This document shows positions 10,042 through 15,766 of a stretch of DNA of 15,766 bases, one piece after another. Location: the NCBI GenBank assembly GCA_048885525.1, contig JBHLLP010000060.1, positions 1-15,766 on the forward strand, written 5' to 3'. Each line of letters begins with the position of its first letter. The first letter of the stretch is position 1. The translations under genes were made by a program, and so were the position numbers. Source of the stretch: Candidatus Hermodarchaeota archaeon (lineage in GTDB: Archaea; Asgardarchaeota; Lokiarchaeia; Sigyniarchaeales; SOKP01). The notes beneath the pieces are model-generated. The model saw only the letters and a list, made by a program, of their open reading frames with translations, was not told the DNA's origin and did no database searches.

Positions 10042-10467
10042 TTATCTTTCACGATCTATTACTTTAAGCTCCATAACAATATTGCCCCAGCCACCACATT
10101 TTAAACCTACATCAGGACAACCTGTCCTGACAGGGAATAACTTTTCATTTGGATCTTGACCAGTATACATTAATGCAGAAGCAGCATATATTAATTTTTC
10201 CACAGCACCTAAAGCAGAAATGCAAATTCTACTGGGACTAAGTTTAGTTAATAAATTCCCAAAACCATCAAAGTAAAATTTATCTCCAACTTTATGCTGA
10301 CTATTACAACCATGCGACTCAACCACTTCTATTACAACTGTCTTATTCATTAAATATGGAGCTCTCCTAAGAACCTCAATATTCTTTGGATCTTTCAAAA
10401 ATAATTTCATTTCTTCGTCAGTATACCCTAAATGACTTTTAATATTGTCTAGAATTTCTTTAGACAT
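10042..10467 (-). CDS. TIGR04076-like Cys-containing protein (paralog 1)
   Basis: IEVVESHGCNSQHKVGDKFYF...RICISAL...GCPDVGLKCGGWG...ELKV matches the family pattern C..HKVGD, C..A, CPD. Confidence 0.7.
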   Translation of the reverse strand: MSKEILDNIKSHLGYTDEEMKLFLKDPKNIEVLRRAPYLMNKTVVIEVVESHGCNSQHKVGDKFYFDGFGNLLTKLSPSRICISALGAVEKLIYAASALMYTGQDPNEKLFPVRTGCPDVGLKCGGWGNIVMELKVIDRER

Positions 10468-10578
10468 GATTATTTCTTCCCTCTAAGTATTGTATTATTT
10501 CTTTTTATATTTAATGTCTTATTAATTATTTCAACACTTATATTATTTTTCGATGAAGTAAACTATATCAAGATAGTC

Positions 10579-10597
10579 AAAATTTTAAAAAAAAGAT
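10579..10597 (-). repeat. 19-bp direct repeat (second copy at 11120..11138), probable oligo-T terminator on the - strand
   Basis: aaaattttaaaaaaaagat is identical at both positions, each in the gap upstream of a TIGR04076-like paralog. Confidence 0.55.
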
Positions 10598-10609
10598 GTA
10601 AAAACTGTA

Positions 10610-11059
10610 TTAATCTCCTTCCTTTATATCTTTAATAACTTTATCCTTGTCTTCAACTTTAAGTTCAAGTATTATTTTACCCCACCCTCCGCATTTTAAT
10701 CCTATATCAAAACAGCCAACCCTTTTAATTCTCATTTCATTAGGATCAACACCTGCATAAAATAGTTCTTGAGCCGCAAAGATTAACCGTTCCATCTGAC
10801 TCAATGCATATATGCAAATTCGCTTAGGATTTAATTTAGTAAGAAGATTTCCTGGACCATCAAAATAAAATTTATCTCCAACTTTATGTAGACTGCTACA
10901 TCCATGTGATTCTACAACTTCAATTATGATTGTTTTTTGTAATAAACCTGGCACCTTAAAGAGTGCTTCTTGATTTCTTGGGTTTTGGAGCCATAACTCC
11001 ATCTCCTCATCTGTATAACCTAAATGGCTTTTCAAGAATTCTTGTATTTTTTTTGACAT
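10610..11059 (-). CDS. TIGR04076-like Cys-containing protein (paralog 2)
   Basis: Clear paralog of 10042..10467, sharing KSHLGYTDEEM, IEVVESHGC, HKVGDKFYFDG, GNLLTKL and GLKCGGWG. Confidence 0.7.
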   Translation of the reverse strand: MSKKIQEFLKSHLGYTDEEMELWLQNPRNQEALFKVPGLLQKTIIIEVVESHGCSSLHKVGDKFYFDGPGNLLTKLNPKRICIYALSQMERLIFAAQELFYAGVDPNEMRIKRVGCFDIGLKCGGWGKIILELKVEDKDKVIKDIKEGD

Positions 11060-11214: not shown

Positions 11215-12147
11215 TTAAGCCTGAATTACTTCCATCAATTTAGGAAAAATTCGTGGATAGTGGACAGCCATACAATGTACTCCTGCTAAGAGGTCTTTTC
11301 TTTTTAGCTCAGAAATAAAGGGCTTAAAAAATTCATAATTTGCTTGATCATACAATCTTTTTTGTTCCTTTTTATCATCTTTAAACTCCGTCTTTATATT
11401 TTTCCACTTAGCTAAAATATCTTTTGGAACATCAACTCCAGGAACAAATGTATCAAAACCCTTCGCCATAGCGTAACTTTTCATTGGAAAAATTCCAAGC
11501 AAGACAGGGACTTTATATCTTTTAATTTCACTCAAGAACTCAATTGTTCTATCTAAATCATAAACCACTTGAGTCTGTATGAACTCGCAGCCTGCTTGAG
11601 CTTTCCTCCCAATTTTTAAAATTTCAGATTCCATTGGATCTGCATTTGGATTTGCAGCTGCACCAACATGTAAAGTCGGAGGATTTTCAATTTCATGGCC
11701 ATTGATAGTTCCTGAATCGACCATTTCTCTTACTAATTTAATTAATGTTGCTGAATCAAGATCAAATACGGGTTTAGATTCTGGCATGTCTCCTAGATTT
11801 GGATGATCACCAGTGAGAGATAAAACGTTTCTTAACCCTAAAGCTTGACCTCCCATTATCATCCCAGCTATTCCTAATTTATTTACATCTCTTACTGTAA
11901 GTTGCCAAATGACTTCTAAACCAGCTTCTTTCTGGATTATGTGGGAAGCTGCCATGCTATTAATTGTTACTATCCCTAAGGGACTATCAGTAACATTTGC
12001 AGCAACCACGTAGGGAGCCATTTCTCTAGCTTCTTGGATAGTATGGGAAAGATCACATGTTTTTTCTGGTTCAAGCTCCCCAGTTAAAATGAATTCTCCA
12101 TTCGAGAGCATCTCACCTAATTTTGAATATACTTTTTTTTCTTCCAC
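11215..12147 (-). CDS. metF: Methylenetetrahydrofolate reductase, flavin-binding subunit
   Basis: GELEP, NVTDSP, QLTVRDVN, NVLSLTGD, VFDLDS, KAQAGCEFIQTQVVYD, AGVHCM. GTG start, 7 bp after the metV stop. Confidence 0.9.
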   Translation of the reverse strand: MEEKKVYSKLGEMLSNGEFILTGELEPEKTCDLSHTIQEAREMAPYVVAANVTDSPLGIVTINSMAASHIIQKEAGLEVIWQLTVRDVNKLGIAGMIMGGQALGLRNVLSLTGDHPNLGDMPESKPVFDLDSATLIKLVREMVDSGTINGHEIENPPTLHVGAAANPNADPMESEILKIGRKAQAGCEFIQTQVVYDLDRTIEFLSEIKRYKVPVLLGIFPMKSYAMAKGFDTFVPGVDVPKDILAKWKNIKTEFKDDKKEQKRLYDQANYEFFKPFISELKRKDLLAGVHCMAVHYPRIFPKLMEVIQA

Positions 12148-12154
12148 GTTTGGT

Positions 12155-12820
12155 CTACCTCCATACTACTTCTCTTTGATGACCAGATTGACTCCAGTCT
12201 ACTGGATCTCTTAATTTACTGAAAAGATCTAATCTACCTAGTTCCTTTAACCTTTCATATATCAAGACCCAACCACAATCTTTTTCATAATTCCCTACTT
12301 CACATTTACCCTTAACCATTCCACCACATGGACCATTCATCAGTGATTTTGCACAAGTAGTAATTGGACAAATTCCTCCCGTTTCGTTTAATAAACAGTC
12401 CCCACAACCGCGACATCGCATATAGAAGCGACCAATTCTCTCTGTCATGCCCATAAATTCTGTATTGGTGGCAATAAAAACGGGGATGTGTGGATATTTT
12501 CGTTCTAAAACTTTAGTAATACTAGCAACTCCCAATCCACAACTTAATGTCAAAATAGCATCTATGTTCTTTAAGTCTTCATCAATTTCTCGGAAATCCT
12601 TCATCATAACTCGATTATCACAAACCTCTTCAGGAACACGCGTGACAACAACTTCAAACCCTTCCTGCTCCAATTTGTCCGCCATTTCCTTTGCACCCTC
12701 TTCTCCACCTGTTTGGCACATTGCAGCACAACTACCGCAAGATACGAGACCAATCTTTTTTACGTCTCGTAAAGTACCTAAAACTTCTTCAAAGGGCTTT
12801 TTTGTGGTTATTACTGTCAT
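12155..12820 (-). CDS. metV: MetV-like Zn/Fe-S subunit of methylenetetrahydrofolate reductase
   Basis: CGSCAAMC, SCGLG, CRGCGDC, GGICPITTCAKSLMNGPCGG, CEV, CGWVLIYERL. Lies directly upstream of metF. Confidence 0.9.
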   Translation of the reverse strand: MTVITTKKPFEEVLGTLRDVKKIGLVSCGSCAAMCQTGGEEGAKEMADKLEQEGFEVVVTRVPEEVCDNRVMMKDFREIDEDLKNIDAILTLSCGLGVASITKVLERKYPHIPVFIATNTEFMGMTERIGRFYMRCRGCGDCLLNETGGICPITTCAKSLMNGPCGGMVKGKCEVGNYEKDCGWVLIYERLKELGRLDLFSKLRDPVDWSQSGHQREVVWR

Positions 12821-12949
12821 TTTTTAATTTATCCCTTCCTAATAATTTTTGATTATATTCAATAATTATTGAAATTAATCATAATATTTATTGTTTTGAA
12901 TTATAAAATGTGACATTTTCATAAAGAAAAATATTAAAAATAAAAACAA

Positions 12950-13102
12950 TTATAAAAAAAACACTTTTTCGGCTTCCTTCTCGTCAAACTCGAGCTCTCG
13001 TAATCTCATTCGAATTTCACGAGGTGTAAAAGAAGTTTTTAAAACTTCCAAAACATTATCATCTAAGGCTTTCAAATTATTTATCGCAGCTTGATGATAG
13101 AA
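12950..13102 (-). repeat. 5'-truncated copy of the 3' end of the 89-aa gene (copy 1; 50 codons plus stop); candidate attR-like displaced fragment
   Basis: Aligns without gaps to 15398..15550 with 23/153 mismatches by manual count. Translates as FYHQAAINNLKALDDNVLEVLKTSFTPREIRMRLRELEFDEKEAEKVFFL* (42/50 aa identical). There is an in-frame stop 7 codons upstream and no matching N-terminus. Confidence 0.93.
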
Positions 13103-13151
13103 AATATATTTCTTAATGATTTATTTTATTCCATGTTTCTGGATCATCTTA

Positions 13152-14141
13152 TTAATAATTTATGGAAAAGAATATAGCTAGCGGTAAGGAAAGAATTAAT
13201 AAAAGTAATCCACTTATACATACTACTTTAAGGACATCTCGTTTTGTTTCTGGAAAATCTTTTTTTATTACATATCGTATAAAGCGAGTTATTATTGGTT
13301 TTAATCTATTCGGGATTTTGATTAAAAAGGGAGTATTTTTGCGATATTCCTTGTATTCTTCTGGATATTTCTCTGATAATTTGATGTCTTCAAAAAAAGC
13401 TACAGTTACAACTATTAATGCAAAAATTACCCATGGTAAACTAGCATTTAGTCCACTTTTAGGCACTACTCCACCTAAATTAAATTCCTCATAAGCCAAA
13501 TATTGAATAGATACACCATAACTCCAAATAAGAAATCCTAAATATTGAGGATGTCTGGAATATTGATATATAGAAAAATCAATTATTTCTTTTCCCTGAT
13601 GTTTACCATAAAGCCAATTGATTACTCCTGAAGTGAAGATATAAAGCCCAATGGCCATAATAATTCCTGGAATAATCGCTATGGGTCCAAACGGAACAGA
13701 AGCAATGCAGAGAGGTAGTGCAGGAATAAAAACAATATTACCAAGTGTTAAAAAATTAAAGTAAGGTGTATCGAAAGGTAGCCAAATTACTTGTAGAATA
13801 CCAAATCCTGCTAAAAAAAACATATATATCGCAAAATTTCCGAACGTCGGTAAGAATAATAAAAATGAGCTTGTTACAGAAATCTTCTCGTACTTTATTA
13901 GAAAACCAAAAATAATCAATATGATAACGATTATAAGATTGAAATAACCAATTGGTCTAACAGTATCAATAACTGTCTCAACTACCTCGGGATTAAAATA
14001 AGGATCTATCGCTGGAATGATTTGAATTAGATAAGAGTTAATGAGATAAGGAATTTCAAAGGTTAAAAATACTAGAACAGCTGTAAAAAATATTGCCAAT
14101 GAACGAATTTTCTTAGGTTTATATGAGTTTTTATCTTTCAT
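13152..14141 (-). CDS. Multi-pass membrane protein, ICMT/PEMT/DUF1295-like methyltransferase superfamily
   Basis: About 8 TM segments, IYQYSRHPQYLGFLIW, EDIKLSEKYPEEYKEYRKNTPFLI. Confidence 0.8.
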   Translation of the reverse strand: MKDKNSYKPKKIRSLAIFFTAVLVFLTFEIPYLINSYLIQIIPAIDPYFNPEVVETVIDTVRPIGYFNLIIVIILIIFGFLIKYEKISVTSSFLLFLPTFGNFAIYMFFLAGFGILQVIWLPFDTPYFNFLTLGNIVFIPALPLCIASVPFGPIAIIPGIIMAIGLYIFTSGVINWLYGKHQGKEIIDFSIYQYSRHPQYLGFLIWSYGVSIQYLAYEEFNLGGVVPKSGLNASLPWVIFALIVVTVAFFEDIKLSEKYPEEYKEYRKNTPFLIKIPNRLKPIITRFIRYVIKKDFPETKRDVLKVVCISGLLLLILSLPLAIFFSINY

Positions 14142-14292
14142 TAAAACTTTTTATTTAAAAGGATACATGATTTCTATGTATTAGAAATACCATTATCTAA
14201 TATATATTTATTATTTAATAGCATTGAACTTACTTAGATATTAAATAGAAATTGAAAAACTAAAAATAAATTAAAATTAGAATATAAAAAAT

Positions 14293-14385
14293 CTATAAAG
14301 GAAAGGTTTTCTCGGCTTCCTTCTCGTCAAACTCGAGCTCTCGTAATCGTATACGGATTTCTCGAGGTGTAAAAGAAGCTTCTAA
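14293..14385 (-). repeat. 5'-truncated copy of the 3' end of the 89-aa gene (copy 2; 30 codons plus stop)
   Basis: Aligns without gaps to 15398..15490 with 6/93 mismatches. Translates as LEASFTPREIRIRLRELEFDEKEAEKTFPL*. Confidence 0.93.
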
Positions 14386-14519
14386 CACTTTGATTATTTA
14401 TATATAAAACTCTTCAAATTTTAAAAATTTTATAAATAAAAAGGAAAAATTGAAAGTGCCTAAAGAAATAAATACATGTAGAATTCTTATTATAGTATCA
14501 GTCTAATACAAAAATTCAC

Positions 14520-15353
14520 ATGGCAAAAAAATATTCTAAGGAAGAAGTTTTCGAAATCTTTCAATCAAAAGATATCGATTTAATGAGATCTCTTATAAAT
14601 AAAGAGTTTGTGAAAGATCTTGAGTTTTCAGAACAAGAGAAAAGAGAACTAGTCCGAAATTTAAATGTACTATTAGTAGAACTTATTGATGAGCCTGATG
14701 ATTTTCATGGATACAATTTTAAACCATTGTATTATAATCTTTTTGGAGATGAATATGTAAAAGCTCTTTTGGAACTAGTAGGTGTGGAGTTTAAAGGATT
14801 TGAATACCACTATATGTGGATCTGGAACCTAAATAAGTATTCAATGCCGATTTTGAGGGCTAAAATTCACGGATCGTTAACTGAATTAGAGTTTAATAAC
14901 GAAAATGAATTTTGTCTAATTGTAATTACTATTGGTACATATTTTGGAAGTAGAGAATTACTCCACTATCTAGATAATACCAACCATTTTAAGTTGCTTT
15001 ATAATGTGCCAACTCTAGAACATAAAGAAGTGAATTATTTATTAGAGGTTACATTATTTCAAGTAATTTATGCAATATTAGAGCATATTGAAAGCAGTAA
15101 TTTGGATGATAAAAGTGCAGCTGAAAAACTCCACCAAAAATTTACAGAGTTATTTAAATATTATTTTATGGAAGAAAAAAGAATTGATCATGCGGAGATA
15201 ATTTACTCTCTCCTTAATTACTTAAACAAACGTAATGAATTATCATTAATCTCATCAGTAATTAATTCCATCCCCCAAAATATTCTTAATGAATTCTTTA
15301 ATAACCCTCAAATGTTAAACTTAAATGAATTCATTAAAAAAGTTTTAAGATAA
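14520..15353 (+). CDS. Hypothetical soluble protein, probably helical, no recognised family
   Basis: 277-codon ORF with ATG start in AT-rich DNA; rich in Glu, Leu, Asn and Phe; no catalytic motif recognised. Confidence 0.75.
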   Translation: MAKKYSKEEVFEIFQSKDIDLMRSLINKEFVKDLEFSEQEKRELVRNLNVLLVELIDEPDDFHGYNFKPLYYNLFGDEYVKALLELVGVEFKGFEYHYMWIWNLNKYSMPILRAKIHGSLTELEFNNENEFCLIVITIGTYFGSRELLHYLDNTNHFKLLYNVPTLEHKEVNYLLEVTLFQVIYAILEHIESSNLDDKSAAEKLHQKFTELFKYYFMEEKRIDHAEIIYSLLNYLNKRNELSLISSVINSIPQNILNEFFNNPQMLNLNEFIKKVLR

Positions 15354-15397
15354 CTATTTTAACACAATAAATAATTTAAAAATATAATTTAGAAATT

Positions 15398-15667
15398 TTA
15401 TAAAGGAAAGACTTTCTCGGCTTCCTTCTCGTCAAACTCGAGCTCTCGTAATCGTATACGGATTACTCGAGGTGTAAAAGAAGTTTTTAACATTTCTAGC
15501 ACATTATCATGTAAAGCTTTCAAATTATCGACCGCTACTTGATGATAAAAATCTTTTTCATTAAAATTTATCTTGATTATTTCAGTTAGGCCGCCCAGAG
15601 CTTCCCGAATGTTCTTATAATAGGCCATCACATCATCCAACTTTTCTTCCTTCTCTATAGGACCCAT
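15398..15667 (-). CDS. Small helical hypothetical protein (89 aa); intact source or target of the repeated 3' fragments
   Basis: ATG preceded by gaggga, an SD-like sequence on the - strand. Comparison with copy 1 shows 10 synonymous codon changes and no indels in this frame, which supports real coding function. Confidence 0.85.
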   Translation of the reverse strand: MGPIEKEEKLDDVMAYYKNIREALGGLTEIIKINFNEKDFYHQVAVDNLKALHDNVLEMLKTSFTPRVIRIRLRELEFDEKEAEKVFPL

Positions 15668-15766
15668 CTTATTCCCTCAATCATTTTTTTGTTTTACAAT
15701 TAATGATAATAAATTTCAATATATAAAGATGTCGGTTTCCGATCATGATGTTGCGATATAACGATC

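Follow-up and report, generated by a model that had tools for sequence, protein, structure and literature searches.

The window analysed in this study is an entire 15.8-kb contig (C60; 15,766 nucleotides) of a metagenome-assembled genome (MAG) from a Candidatus Hermodarchaeota archaeon, a member of the Asgard archaea. The MAG has a size of 3.58 Mb, is 99% complete and has a G+C content of approximately 30%. Near one end of the contig, three direct copies of the 3' end of a small gene encoding 89 amino acids (g89) alternate with single, unrelated genes, and the resulting array ends at metV. Comparison with other members of the genus identified the region between g89 and metV as an insertion hotspot across the genus. 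The array is of a known kind, that of additive or displacement islands, in a new form: the target is a protein-coding gene, no integrase was found in its units, arrays extend in both directions from a hub of two genes, and the hosts are Asgard archaea.

No group of organisms known is closer to the eukaryotes than the Asgard archaea, whose means of acquiring genes are under debate. At the locus described here, accessory genes, including a Sec23/24-like gene in one relative, have entered these genomes repeatedly and at a definite place. The scars record the order of arrival, and neither an integrase nor a reverse transcriptase nor any known mobile element was found to be involved. If host recombination alone builds the arrays, recent gene gain could be mapped throughout Asgard genomes by means of 3'-end scars. 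The hub would also lend itself to the insertion of genetic tools in those few relatives that are in culture.

Organization of the Array in the Window

Read along the minus strand, the window presented intact g89 with an AT-rich tail, a 277-amino-acid open reading frame (ORF) on the opposite strand, a g89 fragment (f1) with its own tail, a 329-amino-acid gene, a second g89 fragment (f2), a 129-bp spacer, metV and metF. A preliminary description of the window had given this order correctly and had placed the 277-amino-acid gene on the wrong strand; it is encoded on the plus strand, convergent with g89. The following features were assigned:

15668–15766, minus strand: promoter region of g89 and start of an approximately 590-bp spacer with iterated boxes (alignment with the spacers of relatives)
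15398–15667, minus strand: g89, intact 89-amino-acid gene and anchor of the array (ORF call, ortholog comparison)
15365–15397, minus strand: tail 1, AT-rich stretch of approximately 33 nt with T-runs after the g89 stop codon (alignment)
14520–15353, plus strand: cargo 1, 277-amino-acid orphan ORF on the strand opposite to g89 (ORF call, Pfam scan)
14293–14424, minus strand: f1, displaced g89 3' end with its stop codon at 14293–14295 (BLAST, alignment, translation)
14260–14292, minus strand: tail 2, AT-rich tail after f1, approximately 77% identical to tail 1 (alignment)
13152–14141, minus strand: cargo 2, multi-pass membrane protein of 329 amino acids with weak matches to ICMT/PEMT-type methyltransferases (Pfam)
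12950–13127, minus strand: f2, older displaced g89 3' end, residues approximately 37–89, ending VFFL* (BLAST, alignment, translation)
12821–12949, minus strand: conserved block of approximately 125 bp upstream of metV (alignment of 14 genomes)
12155–12820, minus strand: metV (Pfam PF12225; synteny in relatives)
11215–12147, minus strand: metF (Pfam PF02219; synteny in relatives)

BLAST, alignment and ORF analysis confirmed the earlier observation of three direct copies of the g89 3' end (intact g89, f1 and f2; BLAST E-values within the genome of 7e-37 and 8e-47), which are spaced 1105 and 1343 bp from start to start and enclose a single ORF (277 and 329 amino acids, respectively) in each interval. 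No further g89 copies were detected by BLAST in the 3.58-Mb assembly. A 37-nt block (15417–15453, 14312–14348, and 12969–13005) was identical in all three aligned copies. In f1, a well-preserved block extends to approximately position 14393, with only 3 differences from intact g89 over approximately 86 nt, and is followed by a decayed extension to approximately 14424 (the 5' 30–50 nt). With their decayed 5' extensions, the fragments measure approximately 130 nt (f1) and 177 nt (f2) and are longer than the 93 and 153 bp originally reported. Translation showed that both close in frame on the TFPL and VFFL endings already noted, with f1 ending in ...VLEASFTPREIRIRLRELEFDEKEAEKTFPL* (...KTFPL*) and f2 in ...KVFFL*.

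Similarity among the copies had been described as ending at the stop codon; alignment extended it by approximately 20–35 nt, into an AT-rich tail with T-runs that is conserved after most g89 copies of the genus. Tail 1, which marks the right boundary of the repeat unit, is probably the g89 terminator. As in integrative elements, the insert lies between direct repeats of the 3' end of its target, whose ORF is complete again. Fragment conservation showed a mild gradient toward the 3' end (88–90% in the core versus 82–85% upstream). When tail and coding divergence were compared, the difference was significant for part of the fragments; for f1, taken in full length, it was not.

Empty and Filled Sites in Related Genomes

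Fifty-four genomes of the genus were searched and approximately 30 g89 loci were retrieved; the genome holding the window was designated G000, its relatives G006, G018 and so on, and individual loci L054 and so on. Across the approximately 30 loci compared, the layout in relatives was constant and consisted of a divergent gene encoding 113–116 amino acids, a spacer of approximately 590 bp, g89, a variable region, the 125-bp block, metV and metF. The last two genes (11215–12820 in the window) form the conserved right flank of the hotspot. The distance between the g89 stop codon and the metV start in 14 species was 126, 277, 480, 638, 747, 1421, 1775, 2080, 2577, 3151, 3181, 4941, 6006, and 8647 bp, with an empty site in G018 (126 bp) and 8.6 kb in G024 as extremes. 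In every genome compared, including the 14 aligned over the metV block, the variable region ended at the same conserved 125-bp block.

At the empty site of G018, intact g89 adjoins the metV block, and f2 of the window adjoins this block within 2–3 nt of the same point. Fragment f2 is therefore the original gene end in its original place. In G065, the tail of the distal fragment passes directly into the metV block, which indicates that the first approximately 21 nt of the tail are ancestral g89 downstream sequence. Filled sites leave the ancestral sequence 21–33 nt after the stop codon, and metagenome unitigs that stem from other contexts part from the window at these points as well (12930 and 15367).

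At least 25 g89 3' fragments, all but one in direct orientation, were found in arrays of relatives (G008, G006, G031, G036, G007, G024, G066 with up to 5–6, G061 with 4, G062, G065, G071, and G072). The same architecture was present in at least 14 other assemblies, among them the closed, one-contig genome G006 and contigs of more than 80 kb. The search of g89-to-metV content in relatives that the preliminary description had called for revealed an empty site and genes that are variable in number and identity and bounded by 3' fragments, and its proposal of sequential gene capture at the g89 3' end was borne out. Two outcomes that it had named as contrary to this proposal, full-length tandem paralogs in relatives and intervening genes in fixed synteny, were not seen.

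Further g89 fragments and rearranged flanks were recorded away from the standard layout. In the closed genome G006, metVF is located on the other side of the hub formed by g89 and the 113-amino-acid gene, in inverted orientation (L056, 3.012–3.018 Mb), and 2.45 Mb away, beside HdrA-like genes, there are two g89 fragments, of which one, together with its flanks, is a near-identical duplicate (L071, G006:C1, approximately 558.5–560.5 kb). This layout points to a rearrangement on a large scale, the breakpoints of which would lie in the array. In L058 (G031:C97), approximately 4.4–4.6 kb upstream of g89 and to the left of the hub, an inverted g89 3' fragment (positions approximately 66–270 and the tail) has become joined to part of the interior of the 113-amino-acid gene, and this fusion is a product of complex rearrangement. 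Two species share, in synteny, a second locus at a great distance from intact g89 that contains an orphan 3' fragment of this gene (L072, G020:C24; L081, G017:C51).

Foreign Origin of an Incoming Copy

In the close pair G031 and G065, the non-coding downstream spacer is 95.5% identical and MetV is 97% identical. What G031 has in addition to G065 is a luciferase-like gene, along with a duplication of 64 bp (41 coding nt and 23 tail nt). The G031 fragment, and everything beyond it, is orthologous to the gene end of G065, while intact g89 of G031 and the DNA upstream of it are only 88% identical to G065. This shift in identity across the scar, 88% versus 95.5%, indicates that the incoming DNA carried its own g89 sequence and that the resident end was displaced. 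With a difference of approximately 19% between the two copies, as compared to approximately 5% in the neutral flanks, in-situ duplication was ruled out for this event. For this pair, the only close one that was examined, a foreign origin of one copy was thereby shown. On average, fragments were approximately 83% identical to the intact g89 of their own genome, a difference approximately equal to g89 divergence between species.

The histories of the 113-amino-acid gene, g89, metV and metF were mutually incongruent, and metV occurs as two allele classes (approximately 70% nucleotide identity between and 75–94% within classes) that do not track metF or g89 relationships. Together, these disagreements indicate frequent recombination at the locus.

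Cargo Genes

Successive intervals of the arrays carry unrelated cargo. Across the genus, cargo genes are mostly singletons, unique to one species, in either orientation and with ordinary functions; they include NosD-like, luciferase-like, YdjM, Elf1-type zinc ribbon, Sec23/24-like, ABC ATPase, peptidase, TPR and ferredoxin oxidoreductase genes. Cargo in first position is encoded on the g89 strand in approximately 8 genomes and on the opposite strand in approximately 12. Shared cargo clusters (c20, c23, and c53/54) follow species relatedness, and no evidence of recent cassette transfer was obtained.

Cargo 1 of the window is present as a single copy in G000. Its homologs are sporadic (6 of the 54 genomes, best identity 67%), occupy other loci and, where checked (L087), lack flanking repeats; an exact look-up of the 277-amino-acid protein matched only unitigs of the sediment study discussed below. 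Matches of cargo 2 to the ICMT and PEMT families were at or just under the Pfam cut-offs. Its homologs (41–67% identical) occupy different loci in other species, and the three contexts that were checked showed no repeats on their flanks. In G007, the Sec23/Sec24-like cargo gene encodes 555 amino acids with trunk and beta-sandwich domains and is located between two g89 fragments (L062:4999–6666, G007:C183).

The Two-Gene Hub and Scars at Other Genes

Of 36 genomes sampled from the genus, 33 contain an ortholog of g89 (56–87% identical); searches of other genera yielded none. The distribution of the protein is narrow, with only 65 matching clusters among 1.84 billion proteins, and no match was obtained in Pfam, NCBIfam, a PDB profile search or Foldseek. 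An AlphaFold model (pLDDT 81) was all helical, with four helices, and gave no informative PDB match. On this model, g89, which is limited to this lineage, is predicted to encode a small four-helix protein. The spacer upstream of g89 (e.g., L054, oriented –973 to 0) contains repeated GATC/TGATCG-type boxes and a TATA box.

The divergent neighbour of g89, encoding 113–116 amino acids, is accompanied by 16 direct 3' fragments beyond its own 3' end in 12 genomes, with up to 4 in G061. These arrays mirror those of g89 (L080 in G061:C6, L074 in G066:C62, L059, L060, L066, L067, and L078), and in G006 a fragment of the 113-amino-acid gene lies inside the g89-side array. None of the 41 fragments of the two hub genes includes a 5' end or the spacer, and only generic T-runs were found as a motif common to the tails of both genes. 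In the G000 assembly, the 113-amino-acid partner gene was missing (tblastn against the genome gave no match below E = 0.02), and the contig terminates 99 bp upstream of g89, within the conserved spacer of approximately 590 bp.

Self-comparison of the G000 genome revealed the same scar at other genes. On contig C10 (G000:C10:52286–54576, L098), the last approximately 110 nt of a 314-amino-acid gene and approximately 45 nt of its tail recur 1.3 kb downstream, beyond a single inserted OppC/DppC-like oligopeptide-permease gene; this site is empty in G031 and G027 and holds different cargo in G065. On contig C17 (G000:C17:24718–26041, L099), a 101-amino-acid gene is inserted on the opposite strand at a DUF3303 gene, adjoining a putative tRNA gene recognized by eye. 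A repeat family on C33 was rejected as a scar, its members being normal tandem paralogs of two genes, one for a GTPase and one for a TPR protein.

Searches for an Integrase, an Attachment Site and a Carrier

The preliminary description had proposed that the cassettes lack integrases and that a recombinase should be sought near g89. Its first proposal was upheld: Pfam scans of approximately 45 cargo proteins revealed no recombinase, and no integrase, excisionase or replication module was found in any array unit in the 54 genomes. The search near g89 was negative, with no tyrosine recombinase (PF00589) detected within 70 kb of any g89 array in these genomes. G000 encodes one tyrosine recombinase, on contig C54, of which almost all genomes of the genus have kept one copy and which we take to be a putative XerA; in many array-bearing genomes, this XerA-like enzyme is the only tyrosine recombinase. 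Serine recombinases were not found in four of five genomes checked (G000, G061, G062, and G006), and five genomes checked for reverse transcriptase (RVT_1) gave no match.

Searches at the level of DNA were likewise negative. DNA folds of five core-plus-tail units (z = –2.05 to +1.19) shared no structure, and no conserved attC-like hairpin was found. Conservation of third codon positions at the 3' end of g89 was no higher than in the rest of the gene. Viral contigs of IMG/VR contained no match to a 25-nt degenerate pattern of the core.

Proposed Mechanism and Alternative Explanations

The explanation that we favour, and consider reasonably probable, is an additive island formed by repeated entry of DNA downstream of g89, in which a homologous crossover in the 3' end is combined with an illegitimate junction and host enzymes act without a dedicated integrase. 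On this explanation, new DNA has entered approximately 21–33 nt after the g89 stop codon, the incoming piece has brought its own g89 3' end and tail, by which the gene is now completed, and the resident 3' end has been pushed outward and survives as a decaying in-frame fragment, the oldest scar being the one that adjoins metV. The 113-amino-acid gene carries the same type of array on its own 3' side, and the two genes form a hub with variable arrays on both flanks. Each insertion would involve one homologous crossover within the 3' part of the gene and one non-homologous junction. The latter would arise beforehand, when the incoming DNA is circularised (Campbell-type insertion), or else during integration itself (homology-facilitated illegitimate recombination). 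The enzymes at work would be those of host recombination, and short repeats may persist because long ones recombine out quickly. In favour of this explanation are the variable gap that always closes on the metV block, the junction common to f2 and the empty site, the fragments in relatives, the mostly singleton cargo, the mosaic flanks in the pair G031 and G065, the divergence of fragments from the intact gene of their genome, the incongruent histories of the flanking genes, the recombinase searches and the scars at other genes. A more far-reaching version of this scheme appears doubtful: in it, the hub (113-amino-acid gene, 590-bp spacer and g89) would be a dedicated, integrase-free capture platform and functional integron analogue, cassettes would circulate as circles between species and enter either hub gene by host recombination, and the 3'-end scar would reflect a general route of gene acquisition in these archaea.

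Several points weigh against the additive-island explanation. Its recombination steps are inferred, because neither circles or other excised forms nor a donor sequence came to light, and how diverse cargo comes to adjoin the tail stays without explanation. Illegitimate recombination is, moreover, rare in bacteria where it has been measured (PMC5361080). Other points would fit a defined att core as well: approximately 11 of 25 fragments have 5' ends that cluster near g89 position 217–232, and the 37-nt block is identical in the three window copies. The approximately 12–15 nt past the proposed insertion point, alike among unrelated cassettes, could be a conserved element end, and a recombinase of a novel family, or from an unbinned virus or plasmid, may yet be responsible. 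These observations lead to the alternative of site-specific integration, in which the last approximately 45 nt of g89 and the tail would serve as attB for integrase-less satellites or remnants mobilised in trans by a new family of enzymes, a XerA-like enzyme, or a virus or plasmid enzyme, and the locus would be an integron-like platform. The minimal segment common to all fragments does consist of approximately 45 coding nt and the tail, with many fragments starting at nearly one position, and newcomers pushing older units outward is the classical topology of elements that replace a 3' end, such as tRNA-targeting tycheposons (bioRxiv 10.1101/2020.12.28.424599). However, the recombinase, hairpin, codon-position and IMG/VR searches described above yielded no enzyme at the arrays, no att structure and no carrier for such a system, and this type of scar is seen at three or four genes that are unrelated to one another, as are their sequences. 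That short fragments cluster may be due to the detection limit of BLAST and to a greater stability of short repeats. Site-specific integration is, on balance, considered unlikely.

Quite improbable, in our assessment, is the integration of whole hubs, in which a circle with hub and cargo would integrate by homologous recombination at any point of the hub to give tandem hubs, and deletions would subsequently remove the second spacer and the 5' parts of its genes, so that a 3' fragment of one gene would be left on each side. Such a single process would account for arrays on both sides of the hub, and is in line with the lack of 5' ends and spacer in all 41 fragments and with the 113-amino-acid gene fragment within the g89-side array of G006. 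Yet no tandem hub or partial spacer copy was found in approximately 30 genomes, a g89 fragment was never seen directly beside a 113-amino-acid gene fragment, as would sometimes be expected from random deletion endpoints, and the C10 and C17 scars occur without a hub. An origin in situ, by tandem duplication and decay of g89 or by long target-site duplications (staggered breaks, target-primed reverse transcription), is judged very improbable. It is compatible with direct repeats that have a fixed 3' boundary in the T-rich tail and variable 5' boundaries, and with the closeness of the proximal window fragment to the intact gene over its 86-nt block. It is contradicted by the divergence of the two copies in the comparison of G031 with G065, by the absence of full-length paralogs from all relatives and by the unrelated cargo in successive intervals. 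The variant of retro-insertion at a fixed T-rich nick with a variable second nick was rejected: RVT_1 was absent from the five genomes checked, and the 329-amino-acid cargo gene has no own T-run before the fragment and hence no transcript-like 3' end, which argues against a transcript-sized retrocopy.

The possibility that strain variants sharing the 37-nt core had been joined into a chimeric contig was given the least credence, as extremely improbable. Among sequencing runs, the locus was found only in Logan unitigs (k = 31) from four metagenome runs (X1–X4) of one sediment study. These unitigs span each cassette from core to core, and both cassette unitigs recur in three runs (X1–X3), with partial cover in X4; two low-support unitig joints (side 21–27 nt) were disregarded. 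In keeping with an artefact, the contig is that of a MAG and ends close to g89, no unitig passes through the core, alternative contexts branch off at the repeat boundaries (12930 and 15367, with a loose end at 15367), and cassette depth is approximately 0.6–0.7 of metVF depth. For the check on a chimeric assembly suggested in the preliminary description, the k = 31 unitigs cover each cassette singly; cassette order and circles are beyond their reach. Ordinary 150-nt reads, however, span the 37-nt core, and the architecture recurs in the other assemblies listed above, including closed G006.

Relation to Known Systems

Islands at the 3' ends of genes are known: e14 and phage 21 target the 3' end of E. 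coli icd. In Prochlorococcus, tycheposons are tRNA-targeting elements that build additive islands (bioRxiv 10.1101/2020.12.28.424599). The g89 arrays resemble islands of the tycheposon or icd type in that incoming DNA restores the target 3' end, partial copies punctuate the array, newcomers push older units outward, empty sites occur and the accessory cargo is diverse. They differ in their protein-coding target in an Asgard archaeon, in their often single-gene units, in that no integrase, excisionase or replication module was found in any unit of the 54 genomes, and in the presence of a second, divergent gene with a mirror-image array.

A second group of related systems consists of the orphan 3'-region arrays of Rhs, contact-dependent inhibition (CDI) and type VI secretion system (T6SS) genes, for which C-terminal displacement via homology-facilitated illegitimate recombination has been proposed (Kirchberger et al., 2017, PMC5361080). 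Like these, the g89 arrays show integrase-free, sequential displacement with a conserved gene part as homology anchor, and displaced 3' ends lie downstream in direct orientation in a mosaic exchanged between lineages. Mosaic flanks, by which a foreign incoming copy is recognized in Rhs/T6SS-type arrays, were found in G031 versus G065, together with the incongruent gene histories. In Rhs, CDI and T6SS arrays, the displaced ends are divergent toxin tips with immunity genes, kept by selection for immunity, whereas g89 fragments all encode the same conserved C-terminus and have unrelated cargo between them in either orientation.

Integrons are characterized by the tyrosine recombinase gene intI, by attC sites that are imperfect palindromes folding as hairpins, and by cassettes in one orientation under a common promoter. 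With integrons, the g89 array shares cassettes that mostly consist of one gene and have a repeat element behind them, and insertion at the proximal end. In contrast to integrons, it has no intI, attC hairpin, common orientation or cassette promoter logic, and its repeat is a coding 3' end that differs between hotspot genes. The g89 array is not an integron. The integron-like assignment and the defined att site of the preliminary description were consequently not retained, in view of the missing adjacent integrase and attC-like hairpin, the mixed orientation, third codon positions without special conservation and the same scar at other genes.

Genes Flanking the Array

The window contains no tRNA gene, metV denoting the gene for the MetV protein (PF12225), and no Rfam family was matched in the window or in L082. 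Downstream of metF (10042–11059), two tandem paralogs encode Cys-rich proteins of 141 and 149 amino acids that are 64% identical and without a Pfam match; one or two copies are kept at this position in relatives. A second, distant metVF pair (approximately 40–49% amino acid identity) is located on contig C12 of G000 and, in several relatives, upstream of the hub.

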